From the NCBI GenBank assembly GCA_017478105.1, contig JAFVEF010000047.1:27204-91203 (forward strand): 64,000 nt of DNA, in the 5' to 3' direction. Both the position numbers and the translations under genes were made by a program. Numbering within the stretch: the stretch's first letter is position 1; each line of letters starts with the position of its first letter. This DNA is from Bacilli bacterium (GTDB taxonomy: Bacteria > Bacillota_I > Bacilli_A > RF39 > UBA660). Below, piece after piece: positions 19,085 to 53,268 of the stretch. A model generated the notes under the pieces. It worked only from the letters and a program-made list of their open reading frames with translations, made no database searches and was not told the DNA's origin.

Positions 19085-19102
19085 ATGTAAATGGAGGTCT
19101 AT

Positions 19103-19759
19103 ATGAAAATATTAGTAATAGATGATGAAGAAAAAATAAGAAAAGTAATTAGAGAATATCTAGAAGTAGAAAAATATGAAGTAGATGAAGCCGAAAACGG
19201 AAGTATTGCTTATAATAAAATATTAAATAATAATTATGATTTACTAGTTTTAGATATAATGATGCCTAATATGGATGGCTATACTCTACTAAAAGAATTA
19301 AAGAATAAAATACCTACAATAATATTATCTGCTAGAAGTGATGAATTTGATAAATTACAAGGATTTGATTTAGGAATAGATGATTATTTAACAAAACCAT
19401 TCTCACCAAAAGAATTAATCGCAAGAGTAAAAGCTATTCTAAATAGAACATATAAAAAAGAAGATAAATATACTTATAAAACACTAGAATTAGATTATTT
19501 AGCTCATACTTTAAAAATAGATAAAAAACTAGTAAATATAACTCCAAAAGAATATGATATTTTAACCTATTTAATAAGTAATAAAAATATTGCTATTTCA
19601 AGAGAACAATTATTATCTAAAATATGGGGATATGATTATTTTGGAGATGATAGAACTATTGATACTCATATAAAAATGTTAAGAAATAATCTAGGTAAAT
19701 ATAGAAATAATATAGTTACTGTAAGAAGTTTAGGATATAAATATGTTGAAGAAGAATAA
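19103..19759 (+). CDS. OmpR-family two-component response regulator
   Basis: REC domain (DD..D54-like LVLDIMMP, K) plus winged-helix trans_reg_C C-terminus. Start at MKILVIDDEE, 5 nt after GGAGG. Confidence 0.9.
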   Translation: MKILVIDDEEKIRKVIREYLEVEKYEVDEAENGSIAYNKILNNNYDLLVLDIMMPNMDGYTLLKELKNKIPTIILSARSDEFDKLQGFDLGIDDYLTKPFSPKELIARVKAILNRTYKKEDKYTYKTLELDYLAHTLKIDKKLVNITPKEYDILTYLISNKNIAISREQLLSKIWGYDYFGDDRTIDTHIKMLRNNLGKYRNNIVTVRSLGYKYVEEE

Positions 19760-21122
19760 TATAAATAAAGAAATATTAAAATATTTTATAATATTTTCTC
19801 TAATAATATTATTTCTATTATGGATACTTCAAATATTATTATTTAAAACATTTTATAAGTATCAAAAAATATCTGATATAAAAACATCATCTAAACTAAT
19901 AAAAAATAGTATTAATACTAATAATTATGAAGAAGTTCTAAATAAAATAGCCTTTGATAATAGTGTTTGTATAGAAATGAATAATAATAATTATGATTTA
20001 TTATATTCTTCTACTTATTTTGGTAAGGGTTGTATTTCTTCATTAGAAAAATCTTATCGATATAAATATGATTTTATAAGTAAACAAAAACAAGAAGAAA
20101 CTTATGAACTTATAAATGAAGAGTTTAATAATACTACTCTAGTACAAGCATTAAAATTAAATAATAAATATATATTTATAAATACATCTCTAGAACCATT
20201 AGATGGAATAACATCTTTAATTCAAAAACAATTAATAGTAGTATCTTTACTAATATATGTAATATCTATAGTACTAGCATATTATATATCTAATCATATA
20301 TCTGAACCAATAAAGGATATAAATAGTAAAGCTAAGAATTTAACTAAAGGAAATTATAATATTAAATTTAATGAAGATACTAAGATAAAGGAATTAGATG
20401 AACTTTCAAAAACATTAAATGAAACTACAAAAGAACTATCAAGAACAGATGAATTAAGAAGAGATTTAATGGCTAATGTATCTCATGATTTAAAAACTCC
20501 ATTAACTATGATTAAAGCTTATGCAGAGATGTCTACTGATCTACATAAAAACAATTTAGAAAAACAAAAAGAAGATATGAATACTATTATAGAAGAAACT
20601 GATAGATTAACACTTTTAGTAAATGATATATTAGAGTTATCTAAAATGGAATCTATTGATGAAAAATTAGAATTAAATAAATTTGATCTAATTAAAATGA
20701 TTAATAATATTCTAGATAAATATAAAGTATTAGAAGAAACTGAATCATATAATTTTATCTTTATTCATAAAGATATAAAATTACTAGTAGAAGCTAATGA
20801 AAATAAACTATATCAAGTAATATATAATTTAATAAATAATGCGATTAATTATACAGGAGAAGATAATACTGTAACGATAAAAGTAACTAATAAAGATAAA
20901 ATAAAAGTAGAAATAATAGATACTGGTAAAGGTATAAAAGAAGAAGATATTCCTTATATTTGGGATAAGTATTATAAGAATAAAAAGAAACATAAAAGAA
21001 ATTTAATTGGTACAGGACTAGGACTAAGTATCGTTAAAAAGATATTAGAAGAACATAATTATAATTATGGAGTAAAATCTTCATCAAAAGGAACAAACTT
21101 CTACTTTGAAATAGATAAATAA
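19743..21122 (+). CDS. sensor histidine kinase (two TM helices, HisKA H-box SHDLKTPL, HATPase_c)
   Basis: Overlaps the regulator gene end. Carries H-box, N-box NAINYT and G-boxes DTGKGI / GTGLGLSI. Confidence 0.9.
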   Translation: MLKKNNINKEILKYFIIFSLIILFLLWILQILLFKTFYKYQKISDIKTSSKLIKNSINTNNYEEVLNKIAFDNSVCIEMNNNNYDLLYSSTYFGKGCISSLEKSYRYKYDFISKQKQEETYELINEEFNNTTLVQALKLNNKYIFINTSLEPLDGITSLIQKQLIVVSLLIYVISIVLAYYISNHISEPIKDINSKAKNLTKGNYNIKFNEDTKIKELDELSKTLNETTKELSRTDELRRDLMANVSHDLKTPLTMIKAYAEMSTDLHKNNLEKQKEDMNTIIEETDRLTLLVNDILELSKMESIDEKLELNKFDLIKMINNILDKYKVLEETESYNFIFIHKDIKLLVEANENKLYQVIYNLINNAINYTGEDNTVTIKVTNKDKIKVEIIDTGKGIKEEDIPYIWDKYYKNKKKHKRNLIGTGLGLSIVKKILEEHNYNYGVKSSSKGTNFYFEIDK

Positions 21123-42647: not shown

Positions 42648-42674
42648 AAACAAAAAAAGAAGCAAAACTTCTTT
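42648..42674 (-). terminator. intrinsic terminator after Rpn-like gene
   Basis: aaagaag-caaaa-cttcttt hairpin at the stop with T-run on minus strand. Confidence 0.5.
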
Positions 42675-43659
42675 ATAGATTATTAGACAGAATATTTTCA
42701 ATTTCAGAAACATCCAAAGAAACAACTTTAGATATTAAATCAAGACTAATCTTTTCAGCATTCATTCGTTTTATAATATCTAGTTTAGTATCATTCTCTC
42801 CCTTGAAATAGCCTTCTTTCTCTCCTTTAGAATATCCTTCTTTCTCTCCTTTAGAATATCCCTCTTTCTCTCCTTTAGAATATCCCTCTTTCTCTCCTTT
42901 AGAATATCCCTCTTTCTCTCCTTTAGAAAATCCTTCCTTCTCTCCTAGAACATATCCCTCTTTTTCACCTCGATGTTTGCCCGCCAGAAATCCCTTGTGA
43001 TTTCCTAAATCATATAAAGCTAATTCTTTATCATAAGACTCTAATAAATCATCTTCCTCACTCACTTCTATTGCTTCTTCAACATATTCTTTCATCATAT
43101 CCAATCCCTCTCCTATTTTTAAGGAATCCTCAACACTAGGCAACACTAATCCCAGTAAATATTTTTCTGATTCCTCTAAGTTATGTATACCGTTAGTATA
43201 CCATTTTTTTAGAAGATTAGGAATATATATTTGTACAAATATTAATTTATTTGTTAGTTTTATATCTTCATCATTTTGAATATAATAAATATCAACTATT
43301 TTATCATTTCCTTTAAAATAAAAATTATTTATATTAAACTGAATTACCTGAACATACTCTAAATCCCTAGATCTCTTTCTTTTTCTTAAACTAGAATACA
43401 GTCTATGAGCATATTCCATATTTCTTTCTAAAATATCTATATCTCCATTATTATTAACCTCTATATTTATCTTACTACCATCTATATTCGCAATATAATC
43501 CCCTATTAAGTTTTTTTCAATATCCTTATTCTTATTAAATACATTTTTACTTAATGTTATATGTTTCAATAATTTTTCAAACGATATATCTAAATAATAA
43601 GAAATAAATAATGCTGAATACTTTAATCTATTTTCATTCAAAAACATAGTCTTCATCAT
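42673..43659 (-). CDS. Rpn/YhgA-like PD-(D/E)XK protein (recombination-promoting nuclease / putative transposase family) with C-terminal GEKEGYSK repeat tail; 5' end uncertain
   Basis: ...DGSKINIEVNNNGD...RNMEYAHRLYSSL aligns with the Rpn IEHQ...RMMRY core, with Q replaced by N. C-terminal KGEKEGYSKGEKEGYS repeats resemble the EKGIEKGIQQG tail of E. coli RpnA. The reading frame stays open upstream to 43824 past a GGAGG, but with no ATG/GTG/TTG. Confidence 0.5.
   Translation of the reverse strand: MMKTMFLNENRLKYSALFISYYLDISFEKLLKHITLSKNVFNKNKDIEKNLIGDYIANIDGSKINIEVNNNGDIDILERNMEYAHRLYSSLRKRKRSRDLEYVQVIQFNINNFYFKGNDKIVDIYYIQNDEDIKLTNKLIFVQIYIPNLLKKWYTNGIHNLEESEKYLLGLVLPSVEDSLKIGEGLDMMKEYVEEAIEVSEEDDLLESYDKELALYDLGNHKGFLAGKHRGEKEGYVLGEKEGFSKGEKEGYSKGEKEGYSKGEKEGYSKGEKEGYSKGEKEGYFKGENDTKLDIIKRMNAEKISLDLISKVVSLDVSEIENILSNNL
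42812..42960 (-). repeat. tandem array of about six 24-bp units (ccttctttctctcctttagaatat) encoding (K)GEKEGYS repeats
   Basis: Units 1-2 are identical, units 3-4 identical with 1 change, later units degenerate. In-frame 8-codon periodicity. Confidence 0.85.
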
Positions 43660-43818
43660 AGAATCAGATAATATAGATATTTTTTCTCCTTCTTTTAATT
43701 CTTCTAATACAATAGAATCATCATAGCAAACCTCCTTATCATATAATAATTTAATATCTGAATTTCTAATTTTTAATATAATTATTACCTCCTTCAGAAA
43801 AAGTTTATAACATAGAAA

Positions 43819-43850
43819 AAAACATCAAGCAAATTGATGTTTTATTAAAA
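43819..43850 (-). terminator. intrinsic terminator ~100 nt downstream of 43943..44473 gene
   Basis: aaaacatcaa-gcaaa-ttgatgtttt 10-bp stem, then T7 on minus strand. Confidence 0.5.
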
Positions 43851-43942
43851 CCAAACATATTATTATCTCAAAATTTATAATCTCCCATATAAATATCAAA
43901 ATTAAGAAATCAAAATAACAAAAAAAATAAATTTAACAAAAT

Positions 43943-44473
43943 TTATTTTTTTATCTTTCTTTTTAAATAATTCTTAGCCTGATTAATTCGATCAATAAAA
44001 CTACTTTTAAAATTAGGCATAAAAGAAGGTATAACTATTAGTAAAATCCATATACAATTAAAATAATCTCCAGAAAAAAATGCTCCTACAACTAAATATA
44101 TTAAAAATATAATAAATAATAACATTATAAGTAAAACTAATAAATTAATAATATTATTAGAATCACTTTTCTTAGTAAAACTAATATCTTTTTTATCTAT
44201 TAAAGAACTAGCTCTTTCTCTAAATAAATCATATTTCTCCTCTAATTCAGCTACACTTTTAATATCCGTTTTATAAATATCATCTCTATACATAATATTA
44301 AAGTCCTCAGTAAAACTTAAATCTACATTTAAATAATTACCAATATCCAAATCAACTGAAAAAACTTCACAAAATATCTTCAATAACTTATTTCTACATT
44401 TAGTAGATATAAAAGATGATTCATTTATAAATACTTTTAATTCTTTATTAATCTTATTTATTTTATCTGACAT
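43943..44473 (-). CDS. hypothetical membrane protein (C-terminal paired TM helices)
   Basis: 176-aa ORF with a soluble N-terminal half and a hydrophobic C-terminal half. Confidence 0.45.
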   Translation of the reverse strand: MSDKINKINKELKVFINESSFISTKCRNKLLKIFCEVFSVDLDIGNYLNVDLSFTEDFNIMYRDDIYKTDIKSVAELEEKYDLFRERASSLIDKKDISFTKKSDSNNIINLLVLLIMLLFIIFLIYLVVGAFFSGDYFNCIWILLIVIPSFMPNFKSSFIDRINQAKNYLKRKIKK

Positions 44474-44506
44474 TAATTATCACCTACAATAATTTTATCA
44501 TAGCAA

Positions 44507-44534
44507 AAGAAAAAAAAGAAGAATTATTCTTCTT
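44507..44534 (-). terminator. intrinsic terminator after yebC (including its C-terminal segment)
   Basis: aagaagaat-t-attcttctt hairpin over the TAA at 44524, then T8 run. Confidence 0.55.
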
Positions 44535-45246
44535 TTAAATTATAATATACATCTTGAACATCATCTAAATCTTCTAAAGCTTCAACTAATTTTTCTACTT
44601 TTTCTACACCCTCAGAATCAAGTTCAACTTCCATATTAGGTACATAAGTTAATTAACACTCTAAAAACTCTTTAACACCATTTTCTTCTAAACTATCACG
44701 TACCTTCGAAAAAGAAGATTGGTCAGTAGATATAAGATAAGTTTCGTCAACTTTTTCAAAGTCACTAGCTCCTGCATCTAATGCAACCATCATCATTGTA
44801 TCTTCATCATATTCTGAAGGAATGACAATAGACCCACGTCTTTCAAACATATAACTAACTGAACCATCAGTACCTAAATTACCACCTGCTTTTGTAAAAC
44901 AACTACGAACTTGTGATGCCGTACGATTACGATTATCAGTTAAGCAATCAACCATGAATGCAACACCACTTGGTCCATATCCTTCATAACGCACTGATTC
45001 ATAATTAGCTCCATCTACTCCACCAGTTGCCTTTTCAATCGCTTTTTGTATATTATCTTTAGGCATATTTTGAGCTTTAGCCTTATCAACCGCAAGTCTT
45101 AAAGCAGCATTCAAATTAGGATCAGGACTTCCACCTTTAGCCGCTACCATAATTTCTTTTGCTAACTTTTGAAATACTTTACCCCTTTGTTGATCAAGTA
45201 AACCTTTTTTTCTATGTATTGTTGCCCATTTAGAATGTCCACTCAT
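44524..45246 (-). pseudogene. yebC: YebC/PmpR-family transcriptional regulator interrupted by an in-frame TAA codon at 44653..44655
   Basis: The track ORF (197 aa) ends ...KEFLEC. The same frame continues after one TAA as [42 protein letters not shown], which is the conserved YebC C-terminus (..IP.N.VELD.E...K...LI.ALED.DDVQ.VY.N). The terminator follows the second segment. Confidence 0.6.
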
Positions 45247-45307
45247 TACAATACCTCCTCTTCATACGTATATATAATATCACATAAAAAGAAAAGAAAA
45301 AAGACAT

Positions 45308-46120
45308 TTAATCTTTTTTCATATCTTTATATATTAAAGTTTTTTCAATAATCATCTTAACACTTTGATCATTAAAAGGTTTTTCTAACATATCAACTAT
45401 TTCATATTTAAAAGCTCTATCAATAGTTTCTTTTGAAGAATCACCAGAAATAATAGAAACTGGCATCTTCTTAAGTAACTTATTTTCCTTCATATAATCA
45501 AGTACCGCAAAACCATCAACTTTAGGCATATTTAAATCAAGTAATATTGTCACAATAAAATCATTATCTTTATTAGCCTTAATTATTTTAATAGCCTCAT
45601 CACCATCATTCGCAGTACCAACATTATACTCATCACTAAAAACTCTCTTAACAAAGTTTCTAATGATATTAGAATCATCTACTACTAAAATAGTCTTTTT
45701 ATTATAAACATCAGGATTAACATCTTCTAATTGTTCAACCTCTTTTTCATCTTCACCATTCATATATTCTTGAATTAATTTAATAGTATTATTAGTTTCA
45801 AATATTAAATCATTAATATGATTAGTTACATAATATAAGTCTCCAGCTTTACTCTTCATTTCATGTTCATAAGCCAAATTAGCTAATTTCATAAAACCAA
45901 AATACTTACAATCACTTTTCATAGAATGAACAATAATAGAATAATTTTGCATATCACCCTTATTCATAAGATCTATTAAATTCTTTATCTTATTATGAAT
46001 ACCCACTAAAAATTCACCTATAGTATCATTATAAGTATTAATATCTCCAAACAATTCTAAACTCTTATCAACATCGACACCCTTATCTTTTAAAAATTGT
46101 ATACTCTTCATTCTATACAC
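45308..46120 (-). CDS. Hpt-domain / receiver-domain fusion protein (phosphorelay component)
   Basis: N-terminal HPt motif HSMKSDCKYFGF. C-terminal REC domain (ILVVDDS, D..LDLNMP, K). Confidence 0.7.
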   Translation of the reverse strand: MYRMKSIQFLKDKGVDVDKSLELFGDINTYNDTIGEFLVGIHNKIKNLIDLMNKGDMQNYSIIVHSMKSDCKYFGFMKLANLAYEHEMKSKAGDLYYVTNHINDLIFETNNTIKLIQEYMNGEDEKEVEQLEDVNPDVYNKKTILVVDDSNIIRNFVKRVFSDEYNVGTANDGDEAIKIIKANKDNDFIVTILLDLNMPKVDGFAVLDYMKENKLLKKMPVSIISGDSSKETIDRAFKYEIVDMLEKPFNDQSVKMIIEKTLIYKDMKKD

Positions 46121-46151
46121 CTCTATTATAATACTAATATAATTTTATCTA

Positions 46152-47594
46152 TTATGAATAATCATCATCATCAAAAGTAACTTCATCATTACTTTCATTA
46201 TTATTAAGAGGATTTAAATCACTATCAGGATTATCATTAATAATAACATCAGCATCTACTTCTTCAACCTTTTCAGGTGTCTCATCATAATCATCGTATT
46301 CGTCTGCTTCATCATACTCATCATTATCACTATTATTACGTTTATGATCTAAGTATGCTTTAGAACCTAGTCCAGCAGCTCCTACTGAAGTAAGACCAGC
46401 TACTATTGGAATAACATTACTTCCAGAAGCAGTTTTAGCTGTACCATGATTTTCAATTGGAATTTTTCTAGCTATTTCAGGATAAATTCCATTATCTTTA
46501 ATAACATCTTCTAAACTTACAGTACTGTCATCAATAATTTCTTCTACTGGTGAATCACTAGTAGTTGTAGAAACATATCCTTCACTACTATATCCTCCAC
46601 CTCCATGATAACTACTTTCATTTTGTGGAACAAATTTAGTAGGAGAAACTTCTTGATTAGTAGGTTCAGGTTGAGGATCAACATATACTTCATTGCCATG
46701 ATTTTCCTGTTTAGTCTCATTATGAGTCTCTTGTTTCTTTCCATTATCAGTAGGAGCAGAAGTATCCTCTTTAGCCTTCTTTGAAGTATCACTACTAGAA
46801 GAACTACTAGAATCAGATGAAGAATTACTAGAGCTAGATGAAGAACTAGAATTAGAACCAGAATCATAATTATAGTTATTTCCACCATTATTCCCATTAT
46901 CACCATTAGGATTACCACGTTGTGGCAATGTACCTTCTTCTCCTTCTTCATCACCAGGTTCCTCATTAGGATTAATTGGTTCTTCGTCTGCTTCTTCCTC
47001 TTCAGCCATTTCAGACAAAATGCCATCTTCGCTTACTGTCCCTCCAGCAAGACCAAGAAGTTTAACAAATTCATCCATATCTACAATATCAAAATTATAA
47101 TAATATTGACTATCAGTACTTTTATTATGGCTATATAAAAAATCATAGAAATCATCAATATCTTTACCTTTATCCTTACAATTTAGAAAATATGGAATTA
47201 ATCTCTGTGTTTCAAAATTATCTCTTTCTCTAAAAGACTTTTCATCGTTAAAAGATACTCCTCTAATTTGAGATAAAATTGCACTAATATCATAATGGCT
47301 TCTCTCATCATCATTAAGACTATTATATTTTTCAACTATCACCTTAACATTTTTTGCAGAAACATCAATGTAATACAATAAATCTTTAATTTTTTTTAGT
47401 TTATTTAAAAAATCAGAAGATAATTTATTACGATCTATTATTGAGGAAAAAAAGACATCACTAGAGTTATTAGATAAATTATTTATTTTTTTTTGAAAAT
47501 TAGTAATTACAATACTAATATCTTCTCTAATTTTTTTATTTGATTTTGAAGTCTCATCAAATTTTTTTGAATTAAATTCTAATTTTTCATTCAT
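46152..47594 (-). CDS. hypothetical protein: helical N-domain, Ser/Asn/Gly-rich and acidic low-complexity linker, C-terminal hydrophobic segment and poly-acidic tail
   Basis: Start set at MNEKLEF (AGGGGAG RBS). Contains ...GNNGGNNYNYDSGSNSSSSSSSS... and IPIVAGLTSVGAAGLG before DEYDEADEYDDYDE. Confidence 0.45.
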   Translation of the reverse strand: MNEKLEFNSKKFDETSKSNKKIREDISIVITNFQKKINNLSNNSSDVFFSSIIDRNKLSSDFLNKLKKIKDLLYYIDVSAKNVKVIVEKYNSLNDDERSHYDISAILSQIRGVSFNDEKSFRERDNFETQRLIPYFLNCKDKGKDIDDFYDFLYSHNKSTDSQYYYNFDIVDMDEFVKLLGLAGGTVSEDGILSEMAEEEEADEEPINPNEEPGDEEGEEGTLPQRGNPNGDNGNNGGNNYNYDSGSNSSSSSSSSNSSSDSSSSSSSDTSKKAKEDTSAPTDNGKKQETHNETKQENHGNEVYVDPQPEPTNQEVSPTKFVPQNESSYHGGGGYSSEGYVSTTTSDSPVEEIIDDSTVSLEDVIKDNGIYPEIARKIPIENHGTAKTASGSNVIPIVAGLTSVGAAGLGSKAYLDHKRNNSDNDEYDEADEYDDYDETPEKVEEVDADVIINDNPDSDLNPLNNNESNDEVTFDDDDYS

Positions 47595-47608
47595 ATATTT
47601 CCACTCCC

Positions 47609-48127
47609 CTAATACTTCCAAACACCATCAATAACTATGTATGAATAAGAATCCCTTAAACTTTCATACTGTCGTATTTTATCAATGGTGTCAGAATCAC
47701 TAATCAAATAACAATATCCATCATAAACTTTTTTATTATTTTCTAGAAGTTGTAATTTACTAACTACTTCATCATAACCAGCAGAATAATTACTATTAAA
47801 AGTGTCAATGTTATCTTTTATATCAGAAAGATTAGCAATTAAATTATCTCTTAATTTTATAGAATTGGACTCATCTATAGAAGAAAAATCCAAAACATTT
47901 GACGCATCCTTATAATCTTCACACAAAACGCAAATATTATTTCTAATATTATATATATCAGATCTAATATCAGAAAGAGAAGCCGAAAAATCTTCTAGCA
48001 TTTTTAAACTATCCGAAATATCTTTAGGAAAAATCTCATCAATATTTAAAGGTGTTATATCTTTATCAGAAACAGAATTATTAAAGCAAGGATAAACATC
48101 AAATGAATAATGATCAAGTTTTCTCAT
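47609..48127 (-). CDS. hypothetical acidic protein (172 aa), translationally coupled in the operon
   Basis: Stop/start spacing of 1-2 nt with neighbours. No recognisable motif. Confidence 0.4.
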   Translation of the reverse strand: MRKLDHYSFDVYPCFNNSVSDKDITPLNIDEIFPKDISDSLKMLEDFSASLSDIRSDIYNIRNNICVLCEDYKDASNVLDFSSIDESNSIKLRDNLIANLSDIKDNIDTFNSNYSAGYDEVVSKLQLLENNKKVYDGYCYLISDSDTIDKIRQYESLRDSYSYIVIDGVWKY

Positions 48128-48128
48128 T

Positions 48129-48398
48129 TTACCTACCCTCTTTCACTTGAAGTACTCTAACTAAGAACTTTTTAACTTCTTCATCCATTAAGCTCTCATG
48201 ACATACTTCTTTTATTTGATTAATATTAAATAATATGATTTTACGTGAATCTATTAATCCTTCTGGGAATAATACTCCACTATAATCATACTCCTCCTCT
48301 TTTCCATTCTCTTTAGGTAAATATCCTACTATCATAACTCTTTTAGTAGCGTTTTCTAACAAAACAACAGTTCCAATAGGTAAAAAGTCACCCATCAA
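48129..48398 (-). CDS. small conserved protein resembling the DUF4176 family
   Basis: MMGDFLPIGTVVLL..KRVMIVGYLP....EYDYSGVLFPEGL matches my recollection of the LPIGSVV...G..P...YDY...P.G family signature. First gene of a four-gene operon. Confidence 0.35.
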   Translation of the reverse strand: MMGDFLPIGTVVLLENATKRVMIVGYLPKENGKEEEYDYSGVLFPEGLIDSRKIILFNINQIKEVCHESLMDEEVKKFLVRVLQVKEGR

Positions 48399-48478
48399 AT
48401 CATCTCCAATCCTATTTACTCTAAAATAATAATAACATATTAGTGTAAATAAAAAAAGAAAAAAATCATAAACTTTAC

Positions 48479-48503
48479 AAAAAAAGAGCGATAATTATCG
48501 CTC
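48479..48503 (-). terminator. intrinsic terminator after 48495..49175 gene
   Basis: Perfect 9+9 palindrome gagcgataa/ttatcgctc over the stop, with T7 on minus strand. Confidence 0.6.
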
Positions 48504-49175
48504 ATTGTAAATAATAGGATATGGATCACCATATTCTTTTAAATATTTTATTTTAAGTTTACCCATACTATTCTTACTTACTCTATCTTTAGCATGAAGA
48601 ATAATATAATCTAACCATTCATCTTCATTCTCATAAAAATCAAAACAATCTCCATGAGGACCACCTTCACATAATCCTACCATAAAATCTATCCTATTTT
48701 TAGTAGCACTATTTATAATTATTTCAGCCCCATTACATGGCATAAGTCCAAAGATTAAATCACAATTACTTGTATCAGTTTTATCAGTAAACATTTCTCT
48801 TTTTAAAACCATTTTAGGCATATCTTCTTCATAAGTAGATAATCTAGGATCATAAATAGTAACTTTACCTTTACCAAGCATAGGATACATTCTTTTACCA
48901 AGTCTAGGTATTGCACCTCCACCAATCTCTATAATATTCTTATCTTCTAATGAAAAAACATCATCTAATAATTTTAAAAATCCAACATAAATATTCTTCT
49001 CTTTAGGAATTAATCCTAATTCATCAAATACTTCTCTAACAATTTCCGGACAAAACTCTTCATTAAAATCAATATCAGCAAAATTTAAAATATACATCAT
49101 TTGATTTTTATCAAATACTCCAGGATATCTGTTAAAGAAAGCAATTATCTTTTCTTTTCTGTCATTACATAACAT
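48495..49175 (-). CDS. hypothetical protein (226 aa), possible Rossmann-like fold
   Basis: Contains IIEIGGGAIP glycine-rich motif. Otherwise unassigned. Confidence 0.35.
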   Translation of the reverse strand: MLCNDRKEKIIAFFNRYPGVFDKNQMMYILNFADIDFNEEFCPEIVREVFDELGLIPKEKNIYVGFLKLLDDVFSLEDKNIIEIGGGAIPRLGKRMYPMLGKGKVTIYDPRLSTYEEDMPKMVLKREMFTDKTDTSNCDLIFGLMPCNGAEIIINSATKNRIDFMVGLCEGGPHGDCFDFYENEDEWLDYIILHAKDRVSKNSMGKLKIKYLKEYGDPYPIIYNER

Positions 49176-49242
49176 AATCCCAACCCCAAACTAATGGCAC
49201 AATTATATCACATAATCATAATTTTTTCAAGTAAAACTAGCT

Positions 49243-49944
49243 TTAATGCTTATCCTTTACCTTTATTATTACTGGATAATGATCACTTATTGGTATATCT
49301 TTAACTATTTTTTTCTCTAACAAAGTAAAATCTTCAGATATAAAAATATGATCTATTGCCCTATGATATTTACTAGATTTTAAAGTTTTATCCAATATAT
49401 CTATATGTTTTATATTTAATAATTCTAATTTAGAAATAAAATCTAAGAATAATTCTTTATTAGTTTTTAAATTAAAATCCCCCATTAAAATAATAGGATT
49501 TTTATCCTTAGATATAATCTTTAATATCCTTTTCAATTGTCTTTTCTTTACAAATAGATTTCGCACTTCTAAATGTGTATTATAAATAGAAATAATTCTA
49601 TTTTTATCTTCTATTTCTACTTTAGTAAGTATTCTCTTAGTAATAGATGGTAAAAATGGTAAATAATATGTTTTATATGATATTATATTTTTCTTAGTAA
49701 TTATAGGATTCTTTTCATTAAATCTTTTAAATAAATATCTAAAATGTAATCTATAACCACCTACACAATTATAATTTTTCATACAAAGGTAATCATTTAA
49801 GTCTCTATCAAGAGTTCTATATACTTCCTGTAAGCCTAATATATCAATATCATTTTTTCTTAAATATTTATATATAATATCCGTTTTTTCTTTTGAATAT
49901 TTAAAATAATCATTTTGAATATTAAATGTACTAATAGTAAGCAT
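49243..49944 (-). CDS. endonuclease/exonuclease/phosphatase (EEP) family protein
   Basis: N-terminal ...TFNIQN...LGLQEV, central ILMGDFN, C-terminal SDHYPV motifs. Start overlaps the obg stop. Confidence 0.75.
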   Translation of the reverse strand: MLTISTFNIQNDYFKYSKEKTDIIYKYLRKNDIDILGLQEVYRTLDRDLNDYLCMKNYNCVGGYRLHFRYLFKRFNEKNPIITKKNIISYKTYYLPFLPSITKRILTKVEIEDKNRIISIYNTHLEVRNLFVKKRQLKRILKIISKDKNPIILMGDFNLKTNKELFLDFISKLELLNIKHIDILDKTLKSSKYHRAIDHIFISEDFTLLEKKIVKDIPISDHYPVIIKVKDKH

Positions 49945-51215
49945 TAATCTTTAAAATCAAAGTAAAAATCTAATATTCTTACTTGATCTCCTTCCTTAGC
50001 TCCCATTTCTCTTAACTTATCATCAATACCAAGTCTTCTAAGTTTTTTCGCAAATCTATAAATTGCTTCATCACTAGAAAATTTAGTCATCTTAAATATT
50101 CTCTCAACTTCTTTACCAGATATTACGTAAATATCATCTTCTTTAGTAATAGTAAATGGTTCTTCTTTTTTAAATTTATATAGAACATGTCCTTCTAATT
50201 GATCATCATTATATAACGGAGTATATGGAAAACTTTCTAATACTTCATCTAATCTATCAACTACTTTTTGTAATCCTTTATTTTGTGATGCACTTACTTC
50301 AAATATTTCTAATTTTACTTTCTTTTTGAAATTAGCAAGATTTTCTTCTGACCCTTCTAAATCCATTTTATTAGCAACAACAATCATTGGTTTATCTAGT
50401 AATGCTTTATTAAATGCTTCTAATTCTTTATTTATTAAAACAAAGTCTTCATAAGGATCTCTTCCTTCACTACCACTCATATCAACAACATGACATATTA
50501 CTCTTGTTCTTTCGATATGTTTTAAAAACTTATCTCCTAAGCCTTCACCTAAGCTAGCACCTTCAATTAAACCAGGTAAATCCGCCATTACAAAACTATT
50601 TCCCCTACTACTTTTACAAACACCTAAATTAGGAGTTAGAGTTGTAAAGTGATAAGCAGCTATCTTTGGTTTTGACCTAGAAACACAAGAAATAATTGTA
50701 CTTTTACCAACACTAGAAAGTCCAACTAATCCAACATCCGCAAGTAGTTTAACCTCTACTTTTAGATTTCTTTTTTCCCCTTCTTCTCCTTTTTCTGAAA
50801 AATTAGGGCAAGTATTAGTTTGCGTTTTAAATGCCGTATTTCCTCTTCCACCACGTCCTCCATGGGCAATTATCTCTTCTTGTCCTTCACGTGATAAATC
50901 ACAAATAACTAATCCTGTATCAACATCAGTAACAACAGTCCCAAGTGGAACTTTAACAACCAAAGGTTCTGCACCTCTTCCATGTTGATTTTTACCTTTA
51001 CCATTTTCACCATTAGCACCTTTAATTGCTTTTTGATAGCGTAAATCAAGCAATGTATGAAGTCCCATATCTACTCTAAATATAATATCAGCTCCATGTC
51101 CTCCATTACCACCAAAAGGTCCACCCATCTCAACAAATTTTTCACGACGAAAAGCAAGACAACCATCTCCACCGTTGCCTGCTTCTACCTTTAATAAAAC
51201 CTCATCAACAAACAT
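49944..51215 (-). CDS. obg: GTPase Obg/CgtA
   Basis: Obg fold N-domain (Gly-rich GGNGGHGADI), G-domain G1 GLSSVGKST / G3 DLPGLIEGA / G4 NKMD, and C-terminal OCT domain. Confidence 0.95.
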   Translation of the reverse strand: MFVDEVLLKVEAGNGGDGCLAFRREKFVEMGGPFGGNGGHGADIIFRVDMGLHTLLDLRYQKAIKGANGENGKGKNQHGRGAEPLVVKVPLGTVVTDVDTGLVICDLSREGQEEIIAHGGRGGRGNTAFKTQTNTCPNFSEKGEEGEKRNLKVEVKLLADVGLVGLSSVGKSTIISCVSRSKPKIAAYHFTTLTPNLGVCKSSRGNSFVMADLPGLIEGASLGEGLGDKFLKHIERTRVICHVVDMSGSEGRDPYEDFVLINKELEAFNKALLDKPMIVVANKMDLEGSEENLANFKKKVKLEIFEVSASQNKGLQKVVDRLDEVLESFPYTPLYNDDQLEGHVLYKFKKEEPFTITKEDDIYVISGKEVERIFKMTKFSSDEAIYRFAKKLRRLGIDDKLREMGAKEGDQVRILDFYFDFKD

Positions 51216-51233
51216 AAATCCCCCTCCAGTCCA

Positions 51234-52025
51234 TTAAACAGTTCTAGGATTTAAACTATTATTATTATCATTATTTAAATAATCAAAAGAATTTTTAAGC
51301 TTATTAACTATTTTCTTATTTAAATGAATTACTTCAGAACCTCTCATCAATATAGTTGAATTATGACTTTTCATCTCATTTAAAACATCTATAGAATGTT
51401 TACTCATTTTCCTTAGTGACCATTCCTGTAAGCCATATCCAACTTCTTTAACATTATCAATAATAGAATTACCTAAAGCATTTCTTTTCTCAGTAATATC
51501 ATGCATTTTATCAGCATAATACTTTGCTTTTTCTTCTTGTCTACTTAATATTCTAAGCCTACTTAAATCTCTTCTATAATCAGGATACATAATAGCATAC
51601 CCAATTTTATTAAAAAAAATCTTTGTCTTTTGTAATTTCTTTATCTTTTCTTGTTTTTTCTCTATTTTTCTATCTATTCTTTGCTTTTCTCTTCTTAGAA
51701 TTAGTTTTTCTCTTAAAGCTTTTAAATTTTTAACAGCCTCTTCTAATTCTTCAATTTTAACATCTTCCTTATTACTTATTTCATCTATTTTTTCTAAATA
51801 TCCTTCAGTAACATAATCTAATTTTCTTCTTTGATTATAATCAACATAACTTTTAAGTTTTTCACTTAAAATCTCCTTTTCTTTTTCTAAACCTCTAATA
51901 GTTATATCAACACTTCCTGCATTAAAAGCATTTAATTTTTTTTTATTTAAAGCGTTAATTCTTAAATTAATTTCATTTAATTTGTTTTTAAGAACTTGTT
52001 TATATGCTTCATCTGAACTACTCAT
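51234..52025 (-). CDS. coiled-coil hypothetical protein occupying the position spo0B holds in Bacillus (between the rpmA cluster and obg)
   Basis: 263-aa K/E/R-rich heptad sequence. No His-phosphotransfer signature recognised. Confidence 0.4.
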   Translation of the reverse strand: MSSSDEAYKQVLKNKLNEINLRINALNKKKLNAFNAGSVDITIRGLEKEKEILSEKLKSYVDYNQRRKLDYVTEGYLEKIDEISNKEDVKIEELEEAVKNLKALREKLILRREKQRIDRKIEKKQEKIKKLQKTKIFFNKIGYAIMYPDYRRDLSRLRILSRQEEKAKYYADKMHDITEKRNALGNSIIDNVKEVGYGLQEWSLRKMSKHSIDVLNEMKSHNSTILMRGSEVIHLNKKIVNKLKNSFDYLNNDNNNSLNPRTV

Positions 52026-52284
52026 AAGTATTATCCTCTTCTTCCATACAAGCCTTCTTAACGACCTCTAATTCACGAGGATCATCAATAGAATCAAGAG
52101 TATATTTATCTCCATCTTTAACTAATAAAGATATATAACATTCAATATTATCTTGATCTACTTCTTTATTCATAGTATAAAGAATATATTCCTTTGAAGG
52201 ATATGCTTTTACACCAAAAATATCTAAAACTTCAACTTCTAATTCTTTTCCATCACTATCAAAAACAACTATCTTATTATCCAT
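52018..52284 (-). CDS. DUF1292-family small acidic protein (YrzB-like)
   Basis: MDNKIVVFDSDGKELEVEVLDIFGVKAYPSKEYILY... fits the ..L.DE.G.E.EFEVLD.F..DG..Y..L pattern. Start at this Met, 6 nt after TAGGAGAA. Confidence 0.6.
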   Translation of the reverse strand: MDNKIVVFDSDGKELEVEVLDIFGVKAYPSKEYILYTMNKEVDQDNIECYISLLVKDGDKYTLDSIDDPRELEVVKKACMEEEDNTYE

Positions 52285-52358
52285 ATTAAATTCTCCTATT
52301 AAAAATATTTTATCACATGAATAATAATAAAAAAAGACCAATAATGGTCTCTTTACAT

Positions 52359-52649
52359 TTATTCACCAACTGGATATACAGAAGCTTGTTTCTTATCTCT
52401 TCCTAAACGTTCAAATTTAACTACTCCATCTACTAAAGAATATAGAGTATCATCATTTCCACGTTTAACATTGCATCCAGGAAAAACTCTTGTTCCTCTT
52501 TGACGATATATTATAGAACCAGCTGTTATGAATTCACCATCAGCTGCTTTAGCTCCTAATCTACGACCTGCAGAATCACGACCATTAGATGTTGATCCTT
52601 GCCCTTTGTGGTGAGCAAATAATTGAATATCTAACTTTAAAAATCTCAT
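52359..52649 (-). CDS. rpmA: 50S ribosomal protein L27 with N-terminal Prp-cleavable propeptide
   Basis: [11 protein letters not shown]|[15 protein letters not shown]... The extension-plus-AHKKG motif is typical of Firmicutes L27. Confidence 0.95.
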
Positions 52650-52660
52650 AATTCTCCTCC

Positions 52661-52963
52661 TTACTTAATACTTATATTATCTGGATAATTAACTTCCAGT
52701 TCTTTTAAAAGATTAATCATATTTTGAATTAGCTTTTGACAAACTAAATCATCACTTTTAACATCAATAGACATCCCTTTTTTACTAACAAGATAACTAA
52801 TATTATCTTTATTTATTAAAAGAATACCATTTACTGTAGTTGTAACTATACTACTACAAGCACTACATACAATATCTTTTCCATAATCATCATATAATGC
52901 ATGTCCAAGTATTGTTACTTTTCTATACTTATTATTCTCTTTTTTTACTTCTACTTTAATCAT
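52661..52963 (-). CDS. prp: ribosomal-processing cysteine protease Prp (YsxB/DUF464)
   Basis: [20 protein letters not shown] matches the Prp catalytic His/Cys dyad context. Sits between rplU and rpmA. Confidence 0.9.
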
Positions 52964-52965
52964 AA

Positions 52966-53268
52966 TTAACCATTAATTTTAGTAATTTTAATTTTAGTAT
53001 AAGGTTGTCTATGTCCTTGACTCAAGCGGTTAGATCTATCTTTACTCTTATATTTAAATACTTTAATCTTTTTATTCTTACCATTTTTAAGAACTTCTCC
53101 TAAAACAGTAGCATTACTAAGATAAGGATTTCCAACTTTTGAATCAATCATCAATACTTGATCAAAACTAACTACATCACCATCTTTACAATCTAGTTTT
53201 TCTACATAGATTTCAGATCCTTCAGTAACATAGTATTGTTTTCCACCGACTTTAATAACTGCGTTCAT
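52966..53268 (-). CDS. rplU: 50S ribosomal protein L21
   Basis: MNAVIKVGGKQYYV...KFKYKSKDRS..GHRQPYTKI is canonical L21. Confidence 0.95.
   Translation of the reverse strand: MNAVIKVGGKQYYVTEGSEIYVEKLDCKDGDVVSFDQVLMIDSKVGNPYLSNATVLGEVLKNGKNKKIKVFKYKSKDRSNRLSQGHRQPYTKIKITKING

Follow-up and report, generated by a model that had tools for sequence, protein, structure and literature searches.

The question raised by positions 45308-48398 of the window, by which we mean the whole 64,000-nucleotide stretch of Bacilli bacterium DNA analysed here (assembly GCA_017478105.1, contig JAFVEF010000047.1, positions 27,204 to 91,203), is why genes that recall type VII secretion should run without a break into a gene for a phosphorelay protein. 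Four consecutive minus-strand open reading frames (ORFs) fill the interval: g1 encodes a small DUF4176 protein, g2 an acidic protein of 172 amino acids, g3 a low-complexity protein with a C-terminal hydrophobic segment and g4 a fused histidine-phosphotransfer and receiver (Hpt-REC) protein. An earlier reading made from the DNA letters (the sequence-only reading) had recognised this four-gene operon as a combination not described before; taken as a single dedicated system, it would have the Hpt-REC protein sense or regulate the secretion of a cargo. All four ORFs are confirmed, and we lean, with modest confidence, towards a locus of two parts, in which g1, g2 and g3 form an effector cassette in the style of a secretion system of type VIIb (T7SSb) and g4 is an unrelated gene of the genomic backbone. 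Proteins identical to those of the locus are encoded on 16-24 public ruminant-gut metagenomic contigs and in two NCBI metagenome-assembled genomes (MAGs; 'Bacilli bacterium'), and the gene calls on public contigs encoding identical proteins supplied the likely starts of g1 to g4 used throughout.

The predicted effector is the product of g3 (46152..47594, minus strand; 480 amino acids from the ATG at 47594, ribosome-binding site GGGGAG). Its helical N-terminal domain (N-domain; about residues 1-200) is followed by a low-complexity linker, placed at about residues 201-335 in the division of the protein and put at about 170 amino acids, 74% of which are S, N, G, T, P, D or E, by a conserved C-terminal module (C-module; about residues 335-425; 46320..46592, minus strand) and by a poly-acidic tail of 65 amino acids with a net charge of -24 (46155..46349, minus strand). 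Within the C-module an HGGGGYS motif and a SLEDVIK...YPEIARKIP motif lead into a hydrophobic helix rich in Gly and Ala, after which comes KRNN. This helix (VIPIVAGLTSVGAAGLGSKAYL, residues 394-415; 46350..46415, minus strand) contains the most hydrophobic 19-residue window of g3 and is only marginally hydrophobic (Kyte-Doolittle 1.35); the corresponding segment is modelled as a helix in a representative of the family. Its N-terminal flank has a charge of 0 and its C-terminal flank a charge of +1 over the first 6 residues and then -4 over 15. As read from the sequence, g3 has no N-terminal signal peptide, and its export would thus need a route other than Sec. The earlier description of a low-complexity protein with a C-terminal hydrophobic segment and a poly-acidic tail holds, as do the helical N-terminus and long linker of its cargo-like layout; the variable C-terminus of that layout does not, since the C-terminus is conserved and the N-domain, together with g2, is what varies.

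The C-module belongs to a large, undescribed family. With a threshold of E<=1e-3, a profile of the region finds 381 representatives of clusters formed at 50% identity, of which 213 remain under the stricter threshold of E<=1e-10; nearly all are unnamed metagenomic proteins, and they come almost exclusively from uncultured gut or rumen Bacilli. Most members are proteins of about 800 amino acids with the module at the C-terminus, and their consensus reads HGGGYS ... SLxDxxKG..Y.KIP ... VIPIxAGLxxxxAAGxGxKAYxDxK. Sixty members, which have no Pfam domain in common, all keep the residues P, G, A, G, G, K and D, the first four at i+4 spacing and followed by GxK; g3 itself carries V at the A position, so that the central residue is A/V and not G. 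With the same profile we fetched 43 metagenomic loci, in which 40 C-module genes have room downstream, and 28 of these 40 are followed after 9-20 nt by a DUF4176 gene, irrespective of the type of N-domain that the protein carries.

The relatives also place the family beside type VII secretion genes. An N-terminal domain of about 300 amino acids, here called the main-branch N-domain, is common to 95 of 152 family members and provides the link. In Clostridium sp. CAG:417 (L020) a protein with this domain is encoded immediately behind genes for an FtsK/SpoIIIE (EssC-type) ATPase of about 1,520 amino acids, a short ORF and two DUF4176 genes; the short ORF occupies the position of YukD and has no Pfam match. 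A second EssC-type ATPase locus (L022), where the ATPase likewise has related DUF4176 genes beside it, encodes a 645-aa protein with the same domain. At L026 (388-3995) the domain is fused to an ADP-ribosyltransferase toxin in a protein of 810 amino acids, and beyond a 101-aa ORF, one gene downstream of the toxin, lies a gene for an ADP-ribosylglycohydrolase that is likely to be the immunity protein; because the domain is here joined to a toxin, the C-module of the other members takes the place that a toxin domain usually has. In one operon of the family (L052) a WXG100 gene comes first, scoring 33.9 bits where the cut-off is 27.3, and a second, WXG100-like gene falls just below the threshold. 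The closest cassette from another species, in a rumen Erysipelotrichaceae MAG (L019), consists of genes for two helical proteins of about 95 amino acids, a DUF4176 protein, a 211-aa g2-like protein and a 603-aa g3-like protein. The DUF4176 coupling, the WXG100 and EssC-type neighbours and the N-domain shared with a toxin together place the family among T7SSb substrates and single out the C-module as the element to which DUF4176 is coupled. The earlier suggested link to type VII secretion is thus supported, at the genomic level, for the relatives of g3, and the C-module may be a type VII effector domain that has gone unrecognised.

Some of these relatives have features worth recording in their own right. 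The arrangement at L026 looks like a polymorphic toxin with its immunity gene, at a locus of the same kind. At L019 (4303-5531) the gene for the 603-aa effector is followed by genes for two further proteins, one helical and 171 amino acids long, the other of 234 amino acids, without a DUF4176 gene of their own; the 234-aa protein has a similar Gly/Ala-rich helix and acidic tail and matches the C-module hidden Markov model at E=2e-4, and the pair might act as a further effector or as a decoy resembling an immunity protein. The extreme C-terminus of most main-branch members is a conserved ...EKYxARxNEELADLQ (alignment A3), a motif that could be a second recognition signal and that g3, which ends in ...TFDDDDYS, does not have.

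The first gene of the cassette, g1 (48129..48395, minus strand; ATG 48395, 88 amino acids), is a genuine small DUF4176 protein by sequence and is predicted to be the cognate chaperone of g3. It matches PF13780 over model positions 1-74 of 74 with 87.9 bits (cut-off 25; E=4.7e-25), and its residues 1-73 match PDB 9DCS, the small DUF4176 protein needed for the stability of TelD (E=2.2e-6), so that the DUF4176-like first gene of the sequence-only reading is confirmed over its full length. Its length falls within the small class of 70-130 amino acids as the size classes are defined in PMC12478183. The association of DUF4176 with type VII toxins, given by the earlier reading, now has an experimental footing: T7SSb toxins have DUF4176 proteins as their specific chaperones, which attach to a disordered amphipathic helix of the client and are not themselves secreted, TelD requires a small member for its stability and the small members are proposed to shield membrane-inserting helices (PMC12478183). 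Like the small DUF4176 (Ltc/Lcp) chaperones MQE10_09270 (TelD; 9DCS) and LcpE (TelE), g1 is an end-to-end PF13780 protein of the small class, and its operon also encodes a protein that combines a disordered region with a hydrophobic helix, which is the type of client stabilised by these chaperones. It differs from them in its surroundings, since the published small DUF4176 genes lie mostly beside DUF443 immunity genes and rarely beside a toxin gene (PMC12478183), whereas in the C-module family the DUF4176 gene adjoins that of the client in 70% of loci; the predicted client here has no Pfam LXG domain.

Comparison of strains shows directly where the variable unit begins and ends. Against contig L009 the DNA of the window is about 96% identical down to position 48107, which lies 20 nt inside g2, and the identity resumes at 46706, at g3 residue 296; between these conserved flanks no DNA match to L009 is found, which defines a hypervariable cassette (46707..48106, minus strand) made up of g2 and residues 1-296 of g3 and exchanged as a whole between strains. 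At the protein level the last 184 residues of g3 are 90% identical to those of a 680-aa protein of L009, and the first 296 residues are about 25% identical. The frame around the variable part is conserved among alleles, which were identified on contigs encoding an identical g4: g1 is 94-98% identical and g4 100%. There are at least three alleles at about 25% identity, some of them naturally fused. In L009 and similar contigs the gene order is DUF4176, 162 aa, 313 aa, DUF4176, 680 aa and g4; in a third allele (L074) it is DUF4176, 659 aa and g4. The 680-aa and 659-aa proteins are natural fusions of a g2-like part with a g3-like part, of the kind seen in P0042 and P0044. The second DUF4176 copy of L009 (5561-5940) is matched at 89% by positions 48485-48105 of the window, and the 313-aa protein of the same contig (A_313), which lies upstream of the full-length gene, has a g3-type N-domain (E=4e-6) without a C-module and looks like a displaced 5' remnant. 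With a diverged N-domain and g2 and a conserved C-terminus, the variable unit is g2 plus the g3 N-domain, the opposite of the polarity first proposed. Recombination at conserved flanks and a displaced partial gene are reminiscent of polymorphic toxin loci with their displaced 'orphan' modules; here, unlike in those loci, it is the N-terminal domain and its partner that vary and are displaced, and the C-module and the chaperone that stay constant.

The product of g2 (47609..48127, minus strand; ATG 48127) is, as described before, an acidic protein of 172 amino acids (net charge -14); it is all-helical, and we take it to be the predicted partner or targeting factor of the g3 N-domain. Neither g2 nor g3 belongs to a Pfam or NCBIfam family. 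The positional homologues of g2, whose divergence puts them beyond the reach of BLAST, have a common N-terminal M.K[LI]..YS, and most of them, like g2, contain FxxxD. In the form DF.S[IM]D, with F81 and D85, this motif is invariant in a three-sequence alignment and recurs in a g2-like protein of another species (L025; DFISIDD), and a functional FxxxD motif is known from Lap1 targeting factors, being required in LapD1; FxxxD is not kept invariant in a six-sequence alignment of g2 proteins (A6), and a motif of five residues is by itself weak evidence. An AlphaFold2 model of g2 joined to g3(1-215), a construct that mimics the natural fusions, has a predicted local distance difference test (pLDDT) score of 39.9 and is usable for secondary structure alone; at this low confidence g2 is predicted to form a pair of long helices, and FxxxD falls in the turn that connects them. 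What argues for a partnership is that g2 and the g3 N-domain vary together as one cassette and that they are fused in nature, and binding between the two may be inferred on these grounds. In being small, helical, encoded just upstream of the effector and in co-varying with the effector's N-domain, g2 is like the Lap factors (Lap1/DUF3130, Lap2/DUF3958, Lap3/Lap4), and its FxxxD, weak as evidence by itself, resembles the LapD1 motif. It departs from them in being one 172-aa protein rather than two of about 100 amino acids, in having no Pfam match, in being fused to the effector in some alleles and, in the low-confidence model, in the placing of its motif between two helices. A Lap-family Pfam domain (DUF3130 or related) is absent from g2 and its homologues, the sole trace being DUF5344 at E=0.51 in the 211-aa protein L019_211.

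The N-domain of g3 is equally hard to place by homology. LXG (PF04740) is not detected at E<=1 in g3, in 6 close relatives or in 60 family members, and the N-domain profile matches no LXG structure in the PDB. When six g3-type N-domains are aligned, no LxG, the motif that marks the turn between helices 1 and 2 of LXG domains, is conserved and I86 is the sole invariant column, and a word-indexed homology search with the g3 N-domain, for which the cluster representative is a 75-aa fragment, returned nothing. Homology of g2 or of the g3 N-domain to the main-branch N-domain was considered and not accepted, the profile-profile probabilities being 13% and 23%, respectively.

The fourth gene, g4 (45308..46111, minus strand; ATG 46111, 267 amino acids, ribosome-binding site AGAGGTG), is an Hpt-REC protein, as first described. 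Its REC domain matches PF00072 (E=1.6e-21). With 20.3 bits the Hpt domain stays under the Pfam cut-off of 24.6, several orthologues of about 75% identity are annotated with PF01627, and H62 of the HSMKS motif, the predicted phospho-accepting histidine, is invariant in 20 orthologues together with D145, D146, D192, S222 and K244. With a canonical HxxKS motif and the complete set of REC catalytic residues g4 is like other Hpt-REC phosphorelay proteins; unlike them it has no output domain and no adjacent kinase, and it forms a lineage-specific, highly conserved family whose orthologues, spread over more than 100 clusters, are 72-80% identical to it.

It is the distribution of g4 that decides whether all four genes make up one system. 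The absence of a terminator in the 40-nt spacer between g3 and g4, which is unstructured (z=-0.7), and the recurrence of the order DUF4176, g2, g3 and response regulator in each of the three alleles and in one further species (L025: DUF4176 - 226 aa - 414 aa - response regulator - YebC) would suit such a system. In four other species (L027-L030), by contrast, orthologues of g4 at 72-80% identity occupy the same site, between Obg with a protein of about 230 amino acids and YebC, and have upstream of them an unrelated gene for a protein of 354-783 amino acids and no DUF4176 gene; only the window's species and L025 carry a cassette at this slot. Cassettes elsewhere do without the regulator, which is missing from L019, from L026 and from 42 of the 43 metagenomic loci, and strains with cassettes of only about 25% identity have g4 at 100% conservation. 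Orthologous operons without Hpt-REC thus exist, which the sequence-only reading had listed among the grounds for refuting its proposal, and a four-gene system, which we regard as very improbable, is contradicted by these comparative data and not supported. As judged from its genomic distribution, g4 belongs to the conserved backbone of this lineage and is not a component of the cassette. It is probably co-transcribed with the cassette, and would be read through from it solely since the cassette occupies the slot upstream.

The unrelated proteins upstream of g4 in the four other species (L027 5037-6935, L029 5002-6936, L028 3412-6919 and L030 5823-6917) have no Pfam domain, are variable in size and end in a common C-terminus, ...DCYY.G...GD.Y...VE.S...LVFIKK; they represent another gene family at the g4 slot. 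A kinase for g4 had been sought in the HisKA/HATPase_c protein encoded at 19743-21122 (plus strand), taken to be an orphan. An OmpR-type regulator (REC and Trans_reg_C; 19091-19759) overlaps the start of this kinase gene, so that 19091-21122 is an ordinary two-component pair and the kinase is rejected as a partner of g4. The Hpt-REC gene lies a few genes downstream of a minus-strand series at 49944-53268, in the order L21, Prp, L27, DUF1292, a 263-aa protein of no known family and Obg. This order resembles rplU-ysxB-rpmA-spo0B-obg of B. subtilis, with the domain-less 263-aa protein at the place of Spo0B. A YqfQ-like gene in the window and CotZ and SpoVIF in relatives suggest that the host is a spore-former; to see in g4 a component of a sporulation phosphorelay is pure speculation.

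Taken as a two-part locus, the region suggests the following course of events. g3 would be the effector, in which a long, disordered linker joins the helical and hypervariable N-domain to a membrane-inserting C-module whose helix would present a PxxxGxxx(A/V)xxxGxG face, with an acidic tail behind it. g2 would bind the N-domain, and the pair would probably form a secretion-targeting bundle of the kind that Lap proteins form with LXG domains, with g2 supplying the export motif. g1 would most likely bind the amphipathic or hydrophobic C-module and shield it in the cytoplasm of the producer until the T7SSb exports the g2/g3 complex, after which the C-module would insert into a membrane. Its most likely role there would be that of a membrane-perturbing toxin element akin to a glycine zipper, comparable to TelE, EsxX, TspA and TelD; an alternative would be an anchor in the producer's own membrane. 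Exchange between strains would take g2 and the N-domain of g3 together, through recombination between two conserved elements, the DUF4176 gene and the C-module. We favour the membrane-perturbing role on account of the toxin position of the module, its marginal hydrophobicity and its invariant small residues at i+4, the latter two of which fit a membrane-active zipper toxin better than a plain anchor.

A close counterpart is TelE, whose middle and C-terminal parts are stabilised by a DUF4176 protein, whose C-terminus bears a glycine-zipper helix and whose variants from different isolates keep that zipper. Like the 514-aa TelE of S. gallolyticus, with its helical N-terminal targeting domain (1-195), DUF4176-bound middle, glycine-rich helix (458-480) and short tail, g3 has a helical N-domain and ends in a small-residue-rich helix and a tail, and its alleles likewise differ and retain the C-module. 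Unlike TelE and EsxX/TspA of S. aureus, it has no LXG domain, and its C-module has no homology to them that a profile search against the PDB detects; its family motif is PxxxGxxx(A/V)xxxGxG rather than the GxxxGxxxG of TelE and EsxX, its low-complexity linker is much longer and its tail is a poly-acidic stretch of 65 residues. The operon here contains neither a DUF5085 or DUF443 immunity gene nor a partner with six transmembrane segments, and from LXG polymorphic toxins in general g3 differs in its conserved C-terminus (90% against 25% for the N-domain) as well as in having no adjacent immunity gene.

A number of observations weigh against the effector cassette. No immunity-like gene follows g3, after which g4 comes next, and an operon without one would be unusual for a toxin. 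The LXG and WXG100 profile matches that had been expected of g2 and g3 were not obtained, nor were matches to Lap Pfam families, in g2, g3 or 60 g3 relatives. No EssC, EsaA, EssB or WXG100 gene lies within the 64-kb window, and an EssC-type ORF is found within 10 kb in the flanks of 0/43 metagenomic loci. The AlphaFold2 model of the g2-g3 N-domain construct is unusable as a model of a complex (pLDDT ~40); that of a main-branch representative is confident over residues 20-410, and Foldseek finds no significant match to it in the PDB (best E=0.016, template-modelling score below 0.15). Searched against PDB sequences, the family profiles of g2 and of the g3 N-domain match generic coiled coils only, and the C-module profile matches no solved T7SS toxin, only generic coiled coils and small transmembrane subunits. 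The order of genes differs, too: in most family loci the DUF4176 gene lies immediately downstream of the effector gene, and in the window it lies upstream with g2 between them.

Two other accounts of g3 leave g4 aside and divide over what the hydrophobic helix does. In one, g3 is exported by the T7SS and retained in the producer's membrane by its C-terminal helix as a surface-display protein, with KRNN as a stop-transfer signal and the acidic tail kept within the cell; the wall would be spanned by the S/T/P/N-rich linker, and the N-domain with g2 would form a strain-specific head (an adhesin, a recognition module or a decoy) under diversifying selection; g1 would chaperone the anchor before export. 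Hypervariable N-domains, a linker whose composition resembles wall-spanning regions and an operon without an immunity gene make this a serious rival, and the variation among near-identical strains at the head end, beside a 90% conserved C-terminus, and the lack of a signal peptide on g3 suit it as well. We nevertheless hold it to be unlikely, since the hydrophobicity of the segment is marginal for stable anchoring, the flank charges leave its topology unsettled, the C-module of main-branch proteins holds the toxin position of an architecture like that of polymorphic toxins, and invariant small residues at i+4 suggest oligomerisation of helices over simple anchoring. The same may be said, at slightly lower probability still, of the family-wide version in which C-module proteins are T7SSb substrates anchored in the membrane of the producer by a helix that DUF4176 holds, with heads and g2 swapped by recombination, and are not toxins. 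The other account dispenses with type VII secretion: g3 would be a tail-anchored protein with its N-domain as a cytoplasmic scaffold, and DUF4176 a general holdase for the insertion of tail anchors. Flank charges of 0 and of -4 over 15 residues would allow an orientation with the N-terminus inside and the C-terminus outside, and the window without a T7SS core gene, the missing LXG, WXG100 and Lap matches and the 43 flanks without EssC would be as expected. Against it stand the relatives, in the WXG100 operon and beside an EssC-type ATPase with a short ORF at the YukD position, the N-domain shared with an ADP-ribosyltransferase toxin that has its ADP-ribosylglycohydrolase gene nearby, and the fact that all DUF4176 proteins characterised so far serve T7SSb substrates; we consider it distinctly improbable.

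The boundaries of the transcription unit agree in part with the earlier description. The window has about 26% G+C and carries nearly all its genes on the minus strand. The operon is tight, as had been proposed, with a purine-rich ribosome-binding site at every start, and the gaps between its genes are 1, 14 and 40 nt, the last of which lies above the 1-30 nt given before. Of the strong terminators claimed on both sides, the upstream one is a GC-rich hairpin (48486..48503, minus strand; a 7-bp stem with 4 GC pairs and a T-run; folding z=-5.2 against shuffled sequence) that ends the upstream 226-aa gene and marks the 5' boundary of the unit. The downstream one is AU-rich, a likely weak intrinsic terminator (45286..45320, minus strand) in which a hairpin and U-tract lie over the g4 stop codon, before YebC; for this end 'strong' was an overstatement. 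Its hairpin of 10 bp (45296-45320) has a minimum free energy of -16.7 kcal/mol (z=-5.2 against shuffled sequence) and was not picked up by a scan for consensus terminators. The leader and presumed promoter region of g1 (48396..48485, minus strand), which is duplicated with the DUF4176 gene in the alternative allele, has no consensus sigma-70 promoter, and an Rfam scan of 43500-50000 gave no credible RNA element.

Among the neighbouring genes, the 226-aa protein upstream (48495-49175, minus strand), which the terminator separates from the cassette, has no Pfam domain, carries an EIGGG..PRLGKR motif and is conserved beside Obg throughout the lineage. Between it and Obg lies a gene of the endonuclease/exonuclease/phosphatase family (49243-49944, minus strand), 233 amino acids long in the window and 153 on scaffold_147 (L002/L011), a case of strain-level gene decay or variation. 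A protein of the Rpn/PDDEXK_2 family (42673-43659, minus strand; also at L009 10316-11440, in L010 and in L017) contains a tandem (K)GEKEGYS repeat, and its different lengths across strains, which are 328, 350, 358 and 374 amino acids, reflect a polymorphism in repeat number. A 176-aa membrane protein (43943-44473) was considered as EssA and rejected, its hit of E=0.011 falling short of the threshold; it is a backbone gene that is also present in the cassette-free L028 and L030.

For the annotation of this lineage, the Hpt-REC gene should not be taken as part of a secretion system. For the DUF4176 proteins, the C-module offers a testable client region of the small class, coupled to it in about 70% of loci. 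The swapping of an N-domain together with its partner within one species mirrors the variation of classical polymorphic toxins and raises the question of what selection acts on targeting or head domains. Should the C-module prove to anchor its protein in the membrane of the producer, the loci would represent a type VII-dependent form of variable surface display, the mirror image of polymorphic toxin loci, and the anchored C-module would be the long-sought client of the small DUF4176 proteins.

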